In this document: piece after piece, positions 5,424 through 52,631 of the stretch | Layout: each line of letters opens with the position of its first letter | How positions within the stretch are numbered: the first letter of the stretch is position 1 | From: Octopus sinensis | Taxonomy: Eukaryota | Length of the DNA stretch: 64,000 nucleotides | Reading direction: 5' to 3' | Assembly (NCBI RefSeq): GCF_006345805.1 | Contig: NC_042998.1 | Coordinates: 63,736,001-63,800,000, forward strand | The notes under the pieces: model-generated | Told to the model about the DNA's origin: nothing | What the model saw: only the letters and a program-made list of their open reading frames with translations | Databases searched by the model: none | Made by a program: the position numbers and the translations under genes

Positions 5424-6450
5424 TTGCATGGAGTATAACAGCCGTTCTCATTTGTTTTCTTGATTTTACAATGCATTCTATATGATATTTCAGTAATAGG
5501 TTGTTTCATTAAGTTAAAACTTTATCAGTTGTCATTTAAACAGCAACTAAGACTCATGATTTATACTGATGTAATTTTACTTGCAAATCACAATAGAAAA
5601 TACCCAACGTTTTAATATCGAAATAAAATTTCAACGCTGGGCAGCAGGGAGGATAATGTGGTGAGCAACGAATTGTGTTTGATGTAATTCTTCAACAGAA
5701 TGCATTGATTTCTTTCCTCTTGAGAATATATCATCTCAATTTATATTTTAATCTCTAAGTTAATGGAAGTGGACAGTTCCTTAGTTTAATGTACAAATAA
5801 GGAAATTCTATATTCTTAGACATTGTAACATTCGCTTTAAAGATATTACGTACATGGTCGGAGATATGCGAACATGAGAAACAAGTACATTTCATTATTA
5901 CAGTTGAATTGTGACTGGTCATAAGTCTTTAAGGTATTGATTTCTTCTTATGTACAAAACCAATTTAGTGGGAACGAACAATTGCTGATTGAATCAAAAT
6001 AGGCAACGATCTGAAGTGGCTGTTGTAACCATGTATTCTGTATTATATTGAGTTGAAATCTACACGAATGATAATTGTCGAACTTCTTTCTTAATTCATA
6101 GCCATATATTTCAATAAAGAAAAAAATGTTTAATCTATTTAAATTCTATTTTACAGGAATATAGTTAGTGACTTAGTTACATACATATATCCGGAAAGCG
6201 AGCTGAGAATGTAAATAAATAAAAATTCTCATAGATCATATTTCTTCACGCCTGTCTTATATATGCCCAAAAATTAGTGGGACGAAAAACAGTAATATTC
6301 AGCAGCTAATGCTAATGCTTTGCATTCACCATGATCGTAGTAATATAGATGAACATCTAAATTTCTTAGCACAACTCACGCACATCTCACTCTGAGTGTA
6401 TGTCTGTGTGTATATGTAAATATGTGTGTGTATACATATGCAAACACATC

Positions 6451-6493
<43 letters not shown>

Positions 6494-6500
6494 TATATAT

Positions 6501-6545
<45 letters not shown>

Positions 6546-6747
6546 CTTGCTATAAAAACACACACAGATACACACACACACACACACACATATTTGTTTT
6601 GCAAGATTTTTATTTTTGATGTGAAATCGTGTGTTGAAATAAGATTAAGTTTAATGTAAAAAATAAATAACGCTGAAGCAAAGTAACGCCAAATATATAG
6701 TGCGTGTGTTTTTATTGGCTACACTGGCAAAATGACCATTCCTAAAT

Positions 6748-11978: not shown

Positions 11979-13285
11979 CTGGGTCTTAAAACAGCTACTA
12001 AATGGCTCAAATGCGGATGTTACATATCTCGAATTTGCAAAAGCCTTTGATAAAGTCGACCATGGTATGATCTGTCACAAACTACGTGGTCTCGGCATAG
12101 GCGGAAAACTTGGAGAGTGGCTGCACGACTTTCTAAAAGACAGAAGACAGGCAGTTGTGAGCAATGGAGCCACTTCCAAGGAAACACAAATAACAAGCGG
12201 TGTTCCACAGGGCACTGTCTTGGGGCCACTGATGTTCATAGTGGCCCTTTTAGACATGCCTTCAGTAGCTACGATGGCCACCCTTGCTAGCTATGCAGAT
12301 GACACAAAAGTCTCCCACACAATACAAAACCCTGAACATATTGCACATCTGCAACAGGAGTTGGATAAAATATACAGGTGGGCGGAGGGCAACAACATGC
12401 AGTTTAATGCAGGTAAGTTCCAGGCCCTGCGCTACCGGCACACAAAAGTAAACGACGTGCAGACTGGATACACTGGCCCAGGAAGAATTGCAATCCCTGA
12501 GTTAAAATCAGTGCGTGACCTAGGCATTGACATGTGCAATGATGCATCTTTCCAAGTGCATATTACTAATCTGGTGATAAAATGCAGACGGCTAGCTGGA
12601 TGGATTCTCCGAACTTTCAGAACAAGAGAGAAGGAGGCACTGATGGTCCTCTGGAAAACATTCGTCCTCAGCCGCTTGGACTACTGCTCCCAACTATGGT
12701 CACCACACAATATAAAACTAACAGCAGAACTCGAAGCAATTCAGAAAAGCTACACAAAGAAGATCGTCTCAATGCAAAATATCAGCTACTGGGAAAGACT
12801 GAAAGTATTAAACCTCTTCTCCCTAGAGCGAAGGCGGGAGAGATATGTGGTGATATACATCTGGAAAATCCTGGAGGGTCTTGTCCCAAACTTTGGCATT
12901 CAAATTTACCCCAACCACAGAACGGGGCGCCACTGCATGGTGCCAAAGATTCAAACATCAGCATCAAAATACAGGACCAGATACTGCAACAGCTTGGGTT
13001 TCAGAGAACCACAGCTCTTTAACATCCTCCCTAAATGCCTGAGAGACTTGCATGGTGTGGATGTGGGTTTCTTTAAAACTAAACTGTATCTCTTCTTGTC
13101 GGGAGTCCCAGATGAACATATCTTACGACAGGAGACGCAGATGCGGGCAGCAGCATCGAACTCCCTTGTTGATCAAGTGTCACGTATCAGAGGTGGATTC
13201 ACATATTAGTGTAGCTCATTCAGCGGTGGTGCCCCAGCATGGCCGCGGCCTTCGGGCTAAAACATTTTTAAGGATTTAAGGATTT
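11976..13285 (+). mobile_element. CR1-group LINE, 5'-truncated, open RT frame to the stop at 13209
   Basis: YLEFAKAFDKVDH, SGVPQGTVLGP, SYADDTK, RDLGI, FSLERRRERY; tail ggtgccccagcatggccgc..(TTTAAGGA)2. Confidence 0.95.
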
Positions 13286-17262: not shown

Positions 17263-17740
17263 AGAGTTGGAACTAATATTGCCAGGCATTCTGCCTCATG
17301 TTTAAACAATTGTATCAGATATAGTTTATCTGCTCAAATTATATCTGGTTATTTGTTGCCTTCTTCAGATGCAATATTGTGCACCATTTAAATGTTTGTG
17401 TGTATGTGTGTACGTACAAATTTTAATACCTCGTAGTATTTTTCAAATACAATACTATGATGCAATTGTGAAACATTTAATGTTTCCTTAACACAACGTT
17501 GCTAAAAGTGAATGGTAGAAAAACCAACAACGTTGACTATTTTGCAATGGAAGCTTATTTAATCCCATATGTATATTTGTCAATATTAGGGTTGACATAG
17601 TAAACATGCAATACATGTAATTCATATTTCTGGGAGTGAAAATATTTCCACATAAAGCCTCCATTGAATTTAATATAGTATTTGAAAAATGCCACCGATA
17701 TCTATAATATAGGAATTAAATGTACAATAGTACCTAAGTA

Positions 17741-18438
17741 TATAATGGTTGTATACTGTCAATCTAACAAGAACGTGGCAGTAGGGGGTACACCACCGTT
17801 ATATAGCCCTAGGAGGCATCGAACTCCTCCTGACAGCTTCGACACATTTTATCCTGTGTCCTTATATACACATACGAAGGGGAGACAAACACCCCCAACT
17901 GCCGGAACTGCATCTAGGGACACCGTGTTTCAGGATCATTGTCCTTCATCGGCCTAGAGTAGCAGACACCGGTCAGCTGGCGATGTCTGTCTCGACTTCG
18001 TATCTGTATATATCTATAGTCAGTGAAGTCTATTCACTGATTATCAAAATAAGAAATATTGAGTTTCTAAATCTCTCGTAGAGAGGTGTACGGTGGTGGA
18101 GCGATATAATGGTTGTATACTGTCAATCTAACAAGAACGTGACAGTAGGGGGTACACCACCGTTATATAGCCCTAGGAGGCATCGAACGCCTGAAACATA
18201 GTGTCCCTAGATGCAGTTCCGGCAGTTGGGGGTGTTTGTCTCCCCTTCGTATGTGTATATAAGGACACAGGATAAAATGTGTCGAAGCTGTCAGGAGGCG
18301 TTCGATGCCTCCTAGGGCTATATAACGGTGGTGTACCCCCTACTGTCACGTTCTTGTTAGATTGACAGTATACAACCATTATATCGCTCCACCACCGTAC
18401 ACCTCTCTACGAGAGATTTAGAAACTCAATATTTATAA
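17741..18438. mobile_element. Hammerhead-bearing non-coding retroelement (364 bp unit, partial tandem plus inversion, 10-bp TSD)
   Basis: Direct repeat at 17740/18104; inverted arms 18054-18192 and 18296-18434; TSD tacctaagta at 17731-17740 and 18439-18448. Confidence 0.85.
17913..17958 (-). ncRNA. Type I hammerhead ribozyme motif (U4C variant)
   Basis: Minus strand: tctagg-CCGATGA-agga-caatga-tcct-GAAA-cac-g-gtg-TC-cctaga; stems I, II and III all pair. Confidence 0.8.
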
Positions 18439-30419: not shown

Positions 30420-30477
<58 letters not shown>

Positions 30478-30504
30478 CGTTGAATATGTTTAACCCTAGT
30501 TTGG

Positions 30505-30583
30505 ACCTTCCTGAAGAAGATCAAACATTGTGAGTTCCCCATGACTTGCTAAAAGAAGATCAGAAACCAATTTGTTCCAGGGT
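30505..30583 (+). ncRNA. Type I hammerhead motif, copy 1 (mutated)
   Basis: accttc-CTGAAGA-agatc..gatca-GAAA-ccaatttgt-TC-cagggt. Confidence 0.65.
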
Positions 30584-31013
30584 ACTAGATGGTAAATGTT
30601 TTTTATTTCCCAATTTATTCCTGTCGAATTTTATCCGTTATTTTTGTGGTTTACAGAACCTAGCTGTTCTTTCTAATGTGTTGAATTTCACGTAAAGTGG
30701 ATTCCTTATGTGAATAAATATGCACTATATCGTATGACTAATATATAATCTTCTTGACTAATTGTTTTTGCACGTTAGACCTCTGGAAATGTAAATTTTG
30801 ATTAAATATTTTAATTTTAATTAAATTCCATTTCCCTTTGATATGATTAAATATTGTAAGTTTTTGGATAATTCTCGGTTAAAGTTGGCGGTTTTTATTG
30901 TAGCCAGCGATTGGACTGCGATTGCGCAGAAAAAATTTGAAAAGTTAGTTCGTATGAACACGAGACAAGTAGCCTTGTTTGTCTCCTGTTAAATATGTTT
31001 AACCCTAGGTTGA

Positions 31014-31089
31014 ACCTTGCTGAAGATCAGACCTTGTGAGTTCCCCCTGACTTGCTAAAAGAGGATCTGAAACCAATTTGGTCCAGGGT
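31014..31089 (+). ncRNA. Type I hammerhead motif, copy 2
   Basis: accttg-CTGAAGA-tcaga..gatct-GAAA-cca-att-tgg-TC-cagggt; stems I and III intact, GUC site at 31081-31083. Confidence 0.72.
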
Positions 31090-31351
31090 ACTAGATGGTA
31101 AATGTTTTTCATTTCCAAATTTATTCCTGTCGAATTTTATCCGTTATTTTTGTGGTTTACAGAACCTAGCTGTTCTTTCTAATGTGTTGAATTTCACGTA
31201 AAGTGGATTCCTTATGTGAATAAATATGCACTATATCGTATGACTAATATATAGTCTTCTTGACTAATTTTTTTTGCACGTTAGACCACTGGAAATGTAA
31301 ATTTTGATTAAATATTTTAATTTTAATTATATGCCATTTCTCTTTGATATG

Positions 31352-31399
<48 letters not shown>

Positions 31400-36129: not shown

Positions 36130-36213
36130 AAGGGTGAAAAGGAACACACGAGTTGATATATATGAAAATACAAGTCAAAAATAGAAAATGCTAAAATAAT
36201 TTTATAGTGAACA

Positions 36214-36257
36214 TTTCAGTACCGGTTTCGGTCATTTTGAGACCTTTTCAACTGTAA
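36214..36257 (-). ncRNA. Hammerhead motif in the inverted pLTR (U3-A8 variant)
   Basis: ttacag-TTGAAAA-ggtc-tcaaaat-gacc-GAAA-ccgg-TA-ctgaaa. Confidence 0.7.
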
Positions 36258-36300
36258 CGATTAAATAATTAAATTTAGAAAAATTAGACGAAAAGTTTTT

Positions 36301-37091
36301 TCTATAGTCTCTAACGCAAACACCAGAGACACACGACTACAAGAACTAAAAGATACCCTAATCACCAGGAACTATCCACCTTCACTTATTGACAAGTGCA
36401 TTCAACGTGCCCTTCAACTTAACATCAAGGAACTGAGACATCCCAAATCAAAGAAAAACTTACAACCAAAAGCCTTACCATACATCTCCATACACAACCC
36501 TCTCAATAACGAAGCCTTCGACACCATCCTCCACAACATACCCCTCCTAAAAAAAGACCACAGAATGAACACATCCTCCAAACACACACGATCATAAAAA
36601 GCAAAAGACAGCCTAGATCCATGAAAAGTCTCCTTACACAAGCCCGAATTCACTCCTCAACACAGAAGCCGACAGTAAAAAAATGTGGAAGACCCAATTG
36701 CGGGATATGCGACTATCTAATTGAGGGATCAGAGTTCTCCTTCAAGCAGGGACAACGGTTTACAGTGAAAAGCAACTTCACATATGCTTCGGAGAACCTA
36801 ATATACTCACTAACCTGCTCCGGGTGTCAAGAGCAGTACATAGGCCAAACAAAAAATGGTTTGCGTAAACGAATGGCCCTGCACAGATCCCAGATAAAAA
36901 TTCCCCAAAACAGAAAAATAGCTTTTAGCCAACACATAGATACTTGCGCCAACAAAAAAACACCAAACTTCAGAATTTTCCCCCTCTACCAATTTAGGGA
37001 CGATACAACCTCGAGACAACGAATAAGTAAAGAAAATCTCTTTATTACAAAATACAAGCCACTTCTAAACGGGTCTACGACAAACAATTAA
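36301..37091 (+). pseudogene. PLE RT C-terminal region plus Cys finger plus GIY-YIG endonuclease (one frameshift near 36580)
   Basis: RLQELKDTLITRNYPPSLI, KCGRPNCGIC, NLIYSLTCSGCQEQYIGQT..RMALH, KE..I..LLN. Confidence 0.92.
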
Positions 37092-37244
37092 TATACCTCA
37101 ACTTTAGAATAAAAGAAAAAAATATATATACACACAAATATTACACCCCATAGAATCCATTACTAATCAGCCCCTTCATAGCTATACTTACACCCATTCA
37201 TATTCCCCCTTCTCTGTTTTTTTCTTCTTCTTCTTCTTCCTCTT

Positions 37245-37603
37245 ATTTATTTAAATTTTAGAAGGATTTACCATTAATGCGTTAGAATGTTATTTATAAA
37301 TTTAATATTTCAAACAAGAATTTATGTCGTAGAGACTTTGCATTCAGAAGTAAATAATTATTGAATATTTCTCAGGATAGTTCTAATCAAGCAAACATAT
37401 TCACCGAAATCTCCCTTGGCCACTATGATAGTTTGACAAATTTTATCCATTTACTTCTTATAAAGGCTTCAGGAATAATTTCAGAGAAATGAATATCTAT
37501 TTCAAGCAGGTCATGCAAACTTACAAGAGCGTTCTAAAACTAGAACATTGACGTATAAATATTTGTTGATACATGCTGCAGGTATGTATATATTAATTTA
37601 TTC
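37245..37603. repeat. 359 bp inverted duplicate of 38810-39168
   Basis: Appears identical by eye to the reverse complement; sits inside the CTT/CAT tract of the PLE 3' region. Confidence 0.92.
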
Positions 37604-38170
37604 TTCATCATCATCATTATCATCATCATCGTCGTCATCATCATCACCACCATCATCACCACCATCTTCTCCTTCTCCTCCTTCTTCTTCATCATCATCA
37701 TTATCATCATCATCGTCGTCATAATCATCACCACCACCACCATCATCGTCATCTTCTCCTTCTCCTTCTTCTTCTTCTTCTTCTTCTTCTTCTACTTCTC
37801 CACCCCCTACCCCTTAACTTTGTCACTAATGTTTTTTAGTATAACACCTACGCTAATTCTATAAACCTACGCTAATTCTATAAACAAGCCTGTCAATATA
37901 AATATTCTCCTGAATTGAACTGAGACTGCCAGCCGCCACTGACCATTCAAAATACGACCATCAGGGCACTCCCAGATTCTCCCATCCCCCTTTCCCCACC
38001 AGCCTTCTTCCTCTACTACCCTTCCAAGAACTCACAACGACCTCCGACACACAAGTGCAAACAAGGGAGTCAGAGAAAGGCAGAATGCCACTTAAATCTG
38101 AACACTACTATAGAAATATTCTTTTAAAAAAACTTTTCTTCTAATTTTTCTAAATTTAATTATTTAATCG

Positions 38171-38214
38171 TTATAGTTGAAAAGGTCTCAAAATGACCGA
38201 AACCGGTACTGAAA
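38171..38214 (+). ncRNA. Hammerhead motif in the 3' pLTR (U3-A8 variant)
   Basis: ttatag-TTGAAAA-ggtc-tcaaaat-gacc-GAAA-ccgg-TA-ctgaaa; palindromic stem III. Confidence 0.7.
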
Positions 38215-39389
38215 TGTTCACTATAAAATTATTTTAGCATTTTCTATTTTTGACTTGTTTTTTCATATATATATATATATATACATACGCATATATATAT
38301 GTTTATATATATACATGTGTTTGAATATACGTATATATACATACACACACACATACACATATATATATACATATGTCGGCGTGTGTGTATGTGTGCATCT
38401 GTGCATGTATGTGTATCTTTGAAGGTAATTATAAATAAATGCATGTACCTACTTAACCATGTGGATAATTACCTTGAGGATGAGTAGTGATCCTTTATTT
38501 TTTGCCTGAAAAACTACAATTTACTCTATTGTGGGAATACCGATACTGTTTATATCGGTTCTATGGAGGCGTAATGCGGATTACACGCTAGAACACCAAA
38601 ATCAATATGCAATATATTGCAATGTTTACTGAATGAGATGAAGATGAAAATTTTATTTCTTGGGGCTGTTACTCTACCATTCACTTCCGATATCGCATTT
38701 ATTGCCAAAACGTATCCTTATACATTCTCATCTGCTGGTCTACTTTTAATTATTATATCGATATTTCATGTATAAACGTTTTGAAATAGGCTTCAACTAA
38801 TGCATCTTGGAATAAATTAATATATACATACCTGCAGCATGTATCAACAAATATTTATACGTCAATGTTCTAGTTTTAGAACGCTCTTGTAAGTTTGCAT
38901 GACCTGCTTGAAATAGATATTCATTTCTCTGAAATTATTCCTGAAGCCTTTATAAGAAGTAAATGGATAAAATTTGTCAAACTATCATAGTGGCCAAGGG
39001 AGATTTCGGTGAATATGTTTGCTTGATTAGAACTATCCTGAGAAATATTCAATAATTATTTACTTCTGAATGCAAAGTCTCTACGACATAAATTCTTGTT
39101 TGAAATATTAAATTTATAAATAACATTCTAACGCATTAATGGTAAATCCTTCTAAAATTTAAATAAATTGGATTCATCACTAAAAAATATTTCTTCCCTT
39201 CGTCTCATGAATAAATTTCTTTAGCAAAATTTTCACCGGAATCGAACAATCCAATGACGACCATACAATCCCTTCCTTTTTGTGACGTAGAAAATAGTTC
39301 TTTTTCATTTAAGGCAATATTATTTAGGTCTCTATGAGCATTATTTTGATTGCAAAATGTTTGGCCAGGATAAAAGCTGAGACCCACAT

Positions 39390-46273: not shown

Positions 46274-46392
46274 GGTTACGGCCATATTAGGTTGAAAGCA
46301 ACGGTTCTCGTCCGATCACCGAAGTTAATCAACATCGAGCCTTGTTAGTACTTAGATGGGTGACGTCTTAGGACACTTAGGTGCTGTATGCA
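46274..46392 (+). pseudogene. Full-length (119 nt) diverged 5S rRNA copy
   Basis: ttacggccata..ggttctcgtccgatcaccgaagttaa..gttagtacttagatgggtgac..ggtgctgta; solitary, with substitutions relative to the metazoan consensus. Confidence 0.9.
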
Positions 46393-48537: not shown

Positions 48538-49179
48538 TTTTCTAATATAAGATTAATATATACAAATGCCCTAATGTATTTATCTTAAGTATATAACTAT
48601 ATTGATAAATGAATAAAAGTTATACATTATTTTAGTTTATCTTCAATAATTATAATCATTTAAATTAAATTTAATAATATACAAATAACTTTATAGTAGA
48701 CCCTATAGTAATTAAAAAACATTTCTATTGTCTTATGCATTTCTGGTTCTTCTCTTGTTTTCGAAAATATGAATGCATAAAATTATATGTATATTGATTT
48801 ACAGCAGTATATTTTCCTCTGGAAAACTAAGTAGAATTTTGTTATTTATTTATTTATTACTTTTTATGTAATTATTAGTATAAATAAGAGATTAATACGT
48901 ACATAAACAATGACTATAACATTAACGCATATTATAACAATTCTTAATCATAATTATATATGTTTAAAATACATTTTAAACATATATAATTATACGAATA
49001 TTCATCGTAGACCCTATGATACTTAGTCAATTGCTATTGTAAAATTAAATATCTCCTGTTCTTCTAGTCTTTCGAAAGTATGAATCCATAAAAAATTATA
49101 AACATACAGATACGCAGTACGTTATGTTCCGCAGAAAACTAACTGACATTTTGATCATTTATTTGTTTATTTATATTTG

Positions 49180-49753
49180 TATTTTTTAGTTTCAGCTCAG
49201 AGATGTGGCCATGCTGGGGCACCGCCGTATTGCTACACAGATATTACTGAGAGATTCTTCTAATATGTGGCATTTAGAGAATAATGGAGTTTGATGTCAC
49301 TACCCTCATTTGCACCTCTTGCCGAGAGGTAGGTTGATCTGGGACTCTCAACAGGAAGAGGTCCAATTTCGCTTTGAAAACATATACATCCACTTTGTGT
49401 AGGTCTCTCAGGCTCTTTGGGAAAACCCAGGCTGTTGCAGTAACAAGCCCTGAACCGCGATGGCATTGCTGGCATATTTGGCACTGAGCAGTGTTGACCC
49501 GTTCTGGCATTGGTGTAGCTTTCAATGCCAAAATTTGGCAGAATTTCTTCCAGGATCTTCCAGATGTATTTTTCTGCACCCCTCCCCCCTGCCTTCGCTC
49601 CAAGTAGTAGAGTCTTAGCTGTTTCAGCCTTTCCCAGTAGCCGCGCTGTTGCAATGAGACTATCATCGTGTGAGGTTCGCTGTATTGCTTCAGGGTCCGC
49701 TGTTAATTTTACACTTTTGGGTGACCATAGCTGGGAGTAGTATTCCAAACGTC
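49180..49753 (-). mobile_element. CR1-group LINE 3' fragment
   Basis: EYYSQLWSP, YWERLKQL..LERR, IWKILE..PNFGI; tail ggcggtgccccagcatggcc; possible TSD ttgtttatttat. Confidence 0.85.
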
Positions 49754-50744
49754 TTGTTTATTTATTTTATGTACAAATGACTAATCGTAATTTGTATACA
49801 ATTGTTTAATATTGGTGTATTTAGATTTTCAAAAAACTTTTTAATATTTAAATATTTCAAAGTTGCATTTTTTATTGACTTCAGTAAATTTCTATTTTAG
49901 TATAGAGATATACTTGCATAGCAAGTGACCTGATCTGAGCTAGTGTGCTGAAACAAAAACAACCGCATCGTGTAAGTTGTTTATAAGCCATTTCAAAACA
50001 CACAAGAACTGTTAGATTCACTTCAACTTTTAAATTTAATTTGCCAAAATATTTTCCTCGCTTTGAGACCGTAACCTGTTCACTCAAAGAGACGGAAATA
50101 TTTTCGCAAATTAAATTTAAATGTTGAAGTGAATCTAATGCTTTTTGTCTCTTTTTAAATGGTTTACAAACACCTTCCACGCTGCAATTGTGTTTATTAT
50201 AATATAATTATGTTATTATGATAATGTGTATTTACGGTTTTTAATTTTGAGAATGTTATTTTCTTAAATAAACGACGTAATTTTTAATTTTGATTGAATT
50301 TTAGTAATGGATGTGATTTAAAATATTATTTAGTATAGGCCAAGTGAGGATAAAGTATTTGAATAAATTTTTCTCTACTCTTTAGCCATGACAAATCGAA
50401 GGTTGTTTTTGTTTTACAGTACTAGTGAGAATAAAATTTCTTTTTAATAAATTGTCTGAATAACATGTATTTTTCCTTATAGTATGAAAGAATAAAAGGA
50501 GATATTTCCTATTTCGAAATAAATTCTTAGCATATTGTTATTATCAGATTTAAACTAATGCTCAGAAATATATTTATTCACAAAAGCACACAAACATATT
50601 TATGACTATTATTCTATTTTGTTTTTTTTTCTTTTCCCACCTTTAACCATCCAAAGCGGAGTATAGGCCACGTATGATTTAATTCCATGTCGCATAAGTT
50701 TTCGCTTCTGTATTTATACTCTGCGATGAATGTGCCCCTGTACT

Positions 50745-51965: not shown

Positions 51966-52600
51966 TGGATTCATGATGGTCCTCTGGCGGACATTCATCC
52001 TCAGTCGCCTGGATTACTGCTCACAGCTATGGTCATCCACCAGTGTAAAATTAACAGCAGACCTTGAAGCAATCTAGAGAAGATTCACAAAGAAGATCGT
52101 CTCTTTGCAACAGCTCAGCTACTGGAAAAGGTTGAAACAGCTAAAACTCTTCTCCCTGGAGAGAAGACGGGAGAGATATGCAGTAATATATGTCTGGAAG
52201 ATCCTGGAAGGAATTGTGCCAAATTTTGGCATTGTAAGCTACACCAATGCTAGAACGGGACGACACTGCATAGTGCCAAAGATCCCAGCAATACCATCAC
52301 GCTTCAGGACCAGCTTCTGCAACAGCCTGGGTTTCAAGGGCCCACAGCTTTTTAATATTCTCCCAAAGAGTCTGAGGAACGTGCACAAAGTAGATGTAGC
52401 GGTTTTTAAATCAAGCTGGACATCTTCCTGTCAAGAGTCCCAGATGAACCTACCTCACGGCAAGAGGTGCAATGAGAGTAGCTGTATCAAACTCCATTCT
52501 CACCAAGTGCCATATATTAGACGAGGTTCGACGCAATAACAGTGTAGCACAAAACGGCGGTGCATCAGCATGGCCGCAGCTCTGAGCTGAAACTAGAAAA

Positions 52601-52605
<5 letters not shown>
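51966..52605 (+). mobile_element. CR1-group LINE 3' fragment
   Basis: LDYCSQLWS, SYWKRLKQLKLFSLERRRERY..PNFGI; same family as 11976; tail ggcggtgcatcagcatggccgc. Confidence 0.9.

Positions 52606-52631
<26 letters not shown>

Follow-up and report, generated by a model that had tools for sequence, protein, structure and literature searches.

The insert at positions 30477..31355 of the window (the whole 64,000-nt stretch of DNA analysed, part of a 2.72-Gb, AT-rich and microsatellite-rich animal genome) is very probably a decayed insertion of 1.74 units of a dispersed 506-nt hammerhead repeat, likely copied into a (TA)n microsatellite by the RT/GIY-YIG protein of a Neptune-like Penelope-like element (PLE), the template having likely been a circular RNA or an uncut multimer. 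As judged by its sequence, the element is a dispersed, non-coding, hammerhead-bearing retroelement with a monomer of 506 nt between the predicted cuts.

Layout of the window copy

The two direct repeats of ~370 bp described in the earlier note, each with a hammerhead core, were recovered at 30479-30854 and 30988-31360, which share 94% identity over a 376-nt alignment at an offset of 506-509 nt. Both contain the series CTGAAGA...GAAA...UC/UUC, with CTGAAGA at 30511 and 31020 and GAAA at 30563 and 31069, and the predicted cuts, after 30577 and after 31083, are separated by the 506 nt that had been claimed. The absence of an ORF was likewise borne out, the longest stop-free stretch in the six frames being 55 codons, as was the embedding of the element in (TA)n, perfect runs of which occupy 30424-30476 and 31354-31398. 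TSDs are unreadable in these flanks. The insert is 5'-truncated at unit position ~406 and its 3' end is site A, one of two sites at which copies of the family terminate. The features of the locus are the following:

30424..30476, no strand: left (TA)n target microsatellite, 26.5 perfect AT copies
30477..31355, plus strand: whole insert, 1.74 head-to-tail passes of the 506-nt unit
30479..30849, plus strand: first pass of the repeated part (first "LTR" of the earlier note), ~10 private substitutions
30496..30588, plus strand: type I hammerhead 1, predicted cut after 30577
30578..31083, plus strand: complete monomer from cut to cut, 506 nt with 33% GC, candidate for a circular RNA
30723..30747, plus strand: internal copy of site B, the other of the family's two fixed 3' ends
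30837..30854, plus strand: internal copy of site A, continuing into the remaining unit
30850..30987, plus strand: supposed "spacer", the part of the unit occurring once
30988..31355, plus strand: second pass of the repeated part (supposed second "LTR"), ~7 private substitutions and a 3-nt deletion
31005..31094, plus strand: type I hammerhead 2, predicted cut after 31083
31229..31253, plus strand: site B, second copy
31343..31355, plus strand: copy of site A that forms the 3' end of the insert, putative start of reverse transcription
31354..31398, no strand: right (TA)n target microsatellite, 22.5 perfect TA copies

Folded as a circle, the monomer has a minimum free energy of -110.4 kcal/mol, against -93.7 +/- 5.1 kcal/mol for 40 dinucleotide shuffles (z -3.3). 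No (TA)-like run of the unit is longer than the ATATATA in site B. The longest purine run of the "spacer" measures 8 nt and lies away from repeat 2, and the spacer ends pyrimidine-rich; no tRNA was found for 30850..30987, the PBS being judged by eye.

The hammerhead motif

In hammerhead 1, helix I is formed by 30505-30510/30578-30583 together with distal CUAG/CUAG pairs. The core CUGAAGA (30511-30517) is followed by helix II (30519-30522/30558-30561), which has an unpaired A on either side and is extended by a 35-nt insert with a hairpin; GAAA occupies 30563-30566, and helix III is broken by a G>T change at 30575. Hammerhead 2 has its core at 31020-31026, GAAA at 31069-31072 and an intact helix III, the base of its helix II being disrupted by the 3-nt deletion. 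Since helix I holds the open ends and helices II and III are closed, the topology is that of a type I hammerhead.

The fold was assessed across the family. Among 37 close copies, 92% of the cells are paired in the type I fold and four pairs show a two-sided change, a value reached by 1/500 shuffles in a control that ignores relatedness. Across 78 motifs, subfamilies exchange G-C/A-U, C-G/U-A and A-U/U-A pairs in helices I and II. This covariation supports the predicted hammerhead fold. The palindrome ACCAAUUGGU forms helix III in 53 of the 78 motifs, and a palindromic helix III is suited to dimers (PMC4209133). The positions of helix II adjacent to the core are A.A in 69/78 motifs and C.A in 7/78, and A.C is present at 10.1-11.1 in 28/78. 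An extra 5' base in helix II is a known trait of PLE hammerheads (PMC4209133); of the extra A before G12, no mention was found in the consulted part of the same paper.

At least 31 of the 78 motifs pass a strict test of core and helices, a figure affected by 13 mis-registered rows and by a parse that missed repeat 2 of the window. The core change CCGAAGA occurs in 6/78 motifs, and the subgroup carrying it has spread nonetheless, so cleavage may not be needed. In all five copies tested the active fold lies 1.6-6.3 kcal/mol above the minimum-energy fold, and the folding z-scores of the hammerhead are not significant. The Rfam hammerhead models gave no match in the window at the gathering score, nor in four loci at E values up to 10.

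A dispersed family of partial tandems

The query of a genome search was the repeat in one case, the hammerhead in another and the "spacer" in a third, with the best 40 candidates scored each time. All three led to dispersed copies on many contigs, at 85-97% identity. An exact 22-nt motif of the 3' end at site A has 358 matches in the genome and an exact 19-nt motif of the hammerhead 3' half has 379, with none for either reversed control; both counts are lower bounds on arms, not copy numbers. The single-copy local duplication envisaged as a refutation in the earlier note is thereby discarded. Subfamilies are 70-90% identical to each other, with units of ~457-510 nt.

The 5' ends of 90 segments from 53 distinct loci span unit positions 2-481. 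More than one unit is present in 18 of these segments, the longest (L021) measuring 1229 nt or 2.4 units, and no longer array was found among the loci mapped. An all-versus-all comparison of flanks revealed no shared extension beyond the unit. The "spacer", in relatives, invariably lies inside the 506-nt unit. Given the scattered 5' ends and multi-unit segments of the relatives, the window copy is best described as 1.74 passes of the unit, and the supposed LTRs as the overlap of these passes. Overall, the family consists of a non-coding tandem unit of a few hundred nucleotides with a GC content below 50% (506 nt, 33% GC, up to 2.4 units). Four of the 24 sequencing runs listed, all of them contigs and three only guessed to be RNA, cover the unit in part; contigs can show neither ends nor circles, and the "back 504" joint is what the tandem would give by itself.

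The family is also separate from that near 17.7 kb, as the earlier note had proposed (best match 11 nt, E 0.28). The latter, at 17740-18434 on the minus strand, is a second, unrelated hammerhead family, with one change in the core, a short helix II and the helix III CACGGUG; its partial tandem and 98%-identical inverted arm are PLE-like.

Two fixed 3' ends and inverted arms

The 3' ends of the same segments are far from scattered. Of 90 ends, 71 fall in two windows totalling 47 of the 506 nt, 42 at site A and 29 at site B, ~100 nt apart. As the first query biased this sample of 53 loci toward A ends, a fairer sample for A was drawn, consisting of 90 loci out of the first 100 listed among the 358 A-motif matches. 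Here 75 copies terminate at A and 15 run on into the unit. The 3' flank of the A-ended copies is TA-rich in 59 cases and of another kind in 16. One arm is present in 35 of them, and the remaining 40 possess a second arm inverted head-to-head, the outer end of which is B in 28, A in one and elsewhere in 11. Two near-identical A+B two-armed inserts 2.2 kb apart (L303:4084-4438 and 6277-6633) probably reflect a local segmental duplication, so that two of the loci counted, L216 and L217, are not independent within the second-arm count of the 75 copies.

Among 30 loci anchored by the hammerhead instead, 11 had A as their main end, 9 had B and 10 fell in neither class, and no A-A or B-B pairs were seen, the automatic classing being imperfect. 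Since A and B are about equally used as main ends, a single A partner out of 29 has p ~6e-8 at 50:50. When 14-nt windows of the unit are ranked by TA/AT content, the top 15 all lie inside A or B. The two arms commonly overlap in sequence, and either may be the longer. Fold-back copying of the first cDNA was considered as a source of the inverted arms and rejected, several B arms containing sequence that is missing from the A arm (L030, L037, L054, L070).

Read against described PLE insertions, the pairing of A with B and the inverted arms are the PLE "tail" signature. The family thus combines 5'-truncated partial tandems, an inverted arm, two internal 3' ends and a microsatellite target, all of them marks of PLEs.

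The 5' ends were also compared with the predicted cut. Ten of 75 lie within 8 nt of it and 27 within 60 nt, a clustering with p 0.0025 relative to the local rate, for a window picked after the data had been seen. By eye, 3/75 lie no more than 2 nt away. As the ends scatter from -8 to +5, stalling of the RT at folded RNA fits equally well as cleavage.

Kinship within inserts and decay of the window copy

Repeats that share an insert resemble each other more than they resemble the repeats of other inserts. Mean divergence is 3.7% between tandem repeats and 4.6% between inverted arms, against between-insert medians of 7.3% and 8.5%, respectively; the within-insert value is below the between-insert median in 19/19 tandem and 27/29 inverted comparisons, several of which may come from one locus. 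In addition, 23 of the 75 arms extend more than 8 nt past the predicted cut site. Taken together, the kinship and the arms crossing the cut make it likely that the template RNA was circular or an uncut multimer.

The repeats of the window copy differ at 17 of 346 compared columns. They have in common two near-private variants, found elsewhere in 1/78 and 4/63 cases, and their remaining private changes are separate. Hence the "complementary defects" of the two hammerheads pointed out in the earlier note are decay after insertion, ~2.5% per repeat, and the window copy is a dead insertion decayed to that extent. The mutations themselves were confirmed: in repeat 1, helix I carries G>C at 30510 and helix III carries G>T at 30575, while 3 nt are missing after the core of repeat 2. 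The consensus pair given for stem II in the earlier note, agatc/gatct, does not represent the state of the family, which has an unpaired A on either side of helix II; the T of gatct is private to repeat 2 (1/68 aligned passes, with A in the other 67).

Penelope-like elements in the same genome

A genome search for GIY-YIG domains gave 149 matches among the best 150 of 5029 candidates. Of 16 GIY-YIG regions, several hold frames of 775-781 aa encoding an RT plus a GIY-YIG domain at the C-terminus, with a CxxxxCxxC linker, a linker tied to Neptune-type elements and microsatellite targeting (PMC8557442). On their domain order and linker motif, these autonomous PLEs appear to be Neptune-like. They terminate in (TA)n, one family at two 3' ends ~35 nt apart. 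In another family the hammerhead has the motif CUGAAGA, and its helix II begins with a U.U mismatch at the base.

No significant sequence common to the unit and an autonomous PLE was found in 46 GIY-YIG loci of the 5029 candidates (best E 0.014), and tblastn of two PLE proteins against the family loci returned unrelated neighbours and L281 alone. The longer copies with an RT/GIY-YIG ORF whose existence the earlier note had suggested checking were not encountered: in the loci sampled, no family arm passes into such a frame, the junction in L281 excepted. There (L281:330-1770), a family arm directly abuts a PLE endonuclease fragment that looks old, no (TA)n separating the two, with (TA)n outside both. 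The junction may be either a template switch or a nested insertion. A co-mobilised chimera finds no support in the kin of the fragment: the PLE fragment looks older (~82% identical to its kin) and the element is present in none of 14 kin loci.

Several further loci are worth recording. A young autonomous Neptune-like family comprises L123:2532-5951, L125, L134, L129 and L131, some copies of which are 97-99% identical; it has an overlapping frame upstream, tandem repeats inside its 3' UTR, two 3' ends ~35 nt apart and a hammerhead-like motif with the altered core UUGAUAA, of the U3-A8 type of PMC4209133. In the window, a two-armed insert with 146-nt inverted ends at 98% identity lies between (TA)n runs at 36131-38301; its Neptune-like PLE thumb/GIY-YIG fragment at 36283-37070 is broken and shares 60% identity with the protein of L123. 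The 359-nt inverted repeat 37245-37603 / 38810-39168, at 100% identity, is probably a very recent two-armed insertion. A full-length 5S rRNA match (74 bits) is located directly after a (TA)n run at 46274-46392 on the plus strand; it may represent a gene, a pseudogene or the head of a SINE.

Alternative explanations

PLE mobilisation might also proceed without a circle, either by uncut read-through of tandem source loci or by jumps of the RT between linear monomers, the hammerhead being weak or dispensable, and to this course a substantial, though less than even, chance has to be given. In vitro, PLE copying relied mainly on uncut RNA as template, and none of the reads stopped at the cut (PMC11167929); of nine Xenopus dimers tested, eight failed to cleave (bioRxiv 10.64898/2026.07.22.740005). 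The spread of CCGAAGA variants and an active fold other than that of minimum energy point the same way. However, the mapped loci contain no array beyond 2.4 units, so length would have to be regained somehow; moreover, the helices covary across subfamilies that are just 70-90% identical, and repeats are closer within an insert than between inserts. Template jumping, as one form of this explanation, fits the array length, the covariation and the within-insert kinship as well. An origin of the tandems by local duplication or satellite-type amplification, that is, by unequal crossover of a single inserted unit, has been proposed for retrozyme arrays (bioRxiv 10.64898/2026.07.22.740005) and would likewise make the repeats of a locus alike, yet the same within-insert kinship is seen for inverted as for tandem arms, tandem inserts use the A/B ends just as single ones do, and the 5' partial units break at unrelated places; we regard it as most improbable.

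Two further explanations invoke a different machinery. LINEs are marked by truncation and inversion at the 5' end and by short pairing with the target, and a LINE associated with (TA)n might have moved the family as a SINE-like element, the inversions arising by L1-type twin priming; the window also holds other RT-like dispersed repeats. Three related 600-nt fragments of the window (12641-13249, 49157-49754 and 51974-52624; 68-77% identity) are likely remnants of an old LINE. In the present family the two arms usually overlap and either may be longer, which L1 twin priming is not known to produce; in addition, copying appears to begin inside the RNA at two sites, and partial tandems with hammerheads are traits of PLEs (PMC8557442, PMC4209133). 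A LINE-driven origin is therefore judged quite improbable. The LTR architecture proposed in the earlier note, which would imply an LTR retrozyme or a TRIM-like element with two LTRs around a spacer, integrated by a Gypsy integrase, owes its appeal to the layout and sizes of the window copy, whose 370-nt repeats and non-coding middle resemble plant LTR retrozymes (PMC4918200). It is refuted by the scattered 5' ends and the multi-unit copies: relatives have no common 5' boundary (unit positions 2-481) and form tandems of more than a unit. They also have inverted arms and a hammerhead of type I rather than type III, and neither TG...CA-like ends, nor a purine tract before repeat 2, nor a tRNA was found. 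This architecture can practically be dismissed.

Proposed mechanism

The preferred reading, copying by a PLE enzyme into (TA)n, may be set out as a series of steps. The 506-nt unit would be transcribed and would undergo slow, dimer- or protein-assisted self-cleavage, with ligation of the monomer to a circle, for and against which the chances seem about equal. A PLE protein would then nick both strands of the (TA)n target, and on one RNA site A would be primed by one strand and site B by the other, with short pairing between these UA-rich sites and the target as an aid. Synthesis would read past the cleavage junction and stop at random, leaving one arm, two arms or a partial tandem, and it is such read-through that would create the apparent "LTRs".

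In vitro, a PLE protein nicks and extends both strands, and two internal start sites define the tail; the protein is predicted to be a dimer, and its main template is uncut RNA (PMC11167929). The start sites observed there have no homology to the target and are the same on both strands, whereas those of the present model would be target-like and strand-specific. The tail is often found on one end only of inverted pLTRs (PMC3846280, PMC8557442). A one-ended tail having already been described, the A/B asymmetry is known in kind.

A more specific version, in which a dimeric PLE protein holds one circular RNA, each nicked (TA)n strand anneals to a different one of the sites A and B and both RTs cross the ligated hammerhead junction in rolling-circle fashion, is possible but rather doubtful. 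If true, such two-site priming would account at a stroke for the tail of PLE type, for arms in head-to-head order and for partial tandems, and the hammerhead variant with its extra A before G12 would act as a slow switch.

Comparison with known systems

By sequence criteria, the family would be placed among the non-LTR retrozymes as a new family which is at the same time a non-autonomous PLE. No description of it or of its ribozyme variant was found in the literature searched; repeat libraries and supplements could list it. The consulted passages of an octopus repeat paper (PMC13282606) leave ribozymes unmentioned.

With the animal non-LTR retrozymes (PMC7229834; bioRxiv 10.64898/2026.07.22.740005) the family has in common a tandem unit that is non-coding, is low in GC and holds a single type I hammerhead, a predicted self-paired circle, the coexistence of PLEs and the lack of LTR, PBS or PPT. 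Its unit of 506 nt exceeds the 170-400 nt given in PMC7229834 and lies within the 51-972 of the bioRxiv report. However, animal non-LTR retrozymes form long arrays, whereas dispersed partial tandems of up to 2.4 units make up the sample examined here, and, unlike in those retrozymes as described in the consulted parts of both sources, no pLTR homology was found for the family. Plant LTR retrozymes likewise consist of two 300-400-nt direct repeats with a hammerhead in each and a non-coding part between, but they differ in having a type III hammerhead, a PBS, a PPT and fixed ends; a 4-bp TSD is a further trait of theirs (PMC4918200).

PLE insertions (PMC8557442, PMC3846280, PMC11167929) resemble those of the family in 5' truncation, head-to-head arms, a microsatellite target and two internal 3' ends downstream of the hammerhead. 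The family is set apart by the lack of an ORF, by an offset between the 3' ends of ~100 nt as opposed to 30-40, by putative start sites that both resemble the (TA)n target, and by the pairing of A with B, counted as 28 versus 1. Minimal PLE hammerheads (PMC4209133) are of type I too, with a palindromic helix III suited to dimers, an extra nucleotide between A9 and G10.1 and, in many copies, G10.1-C11.1; the second unpaired A, between C11.1 and G12, the structured helix II insert of 33-45 nt and the long bulged helix I distinguish the ribozyme of the family from those described in the text consulted. Chlamys MRC1 is a further non-autonomous PLE with head-to-tail copies and a microsatellite target, whose pLTR was first mistaken for an LTR (PMC8557442). 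The Chlamys elements differ in being mostly without hammerheads, in their (CA)n or (C)n targets and in 3' sequence common with an autonomous family (PMC8557442).

As the class and each structural trait have been described before, the gain is a good test case rather than a new system. That PLE proteins move animal retrozymes via circular RNA was proposed from co-occurrence and pLTR similarity (PMC7229834; bioRxiv 10.64898/2026.07.22.740005), and the mechanism of mobilisation is still open according to the latter report. In the present family, hundreds of dispersed copies themselves bear the PLE insertion signature at exact, testable positions, namely two start sites, the way these pair one to one where an insert has two arms, and copying that passes through the ribozyme. 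These insertion scars suggest that the copies were likely pasted in by a PLE enzyme, and they would make the copying route of a retrozyme testable.
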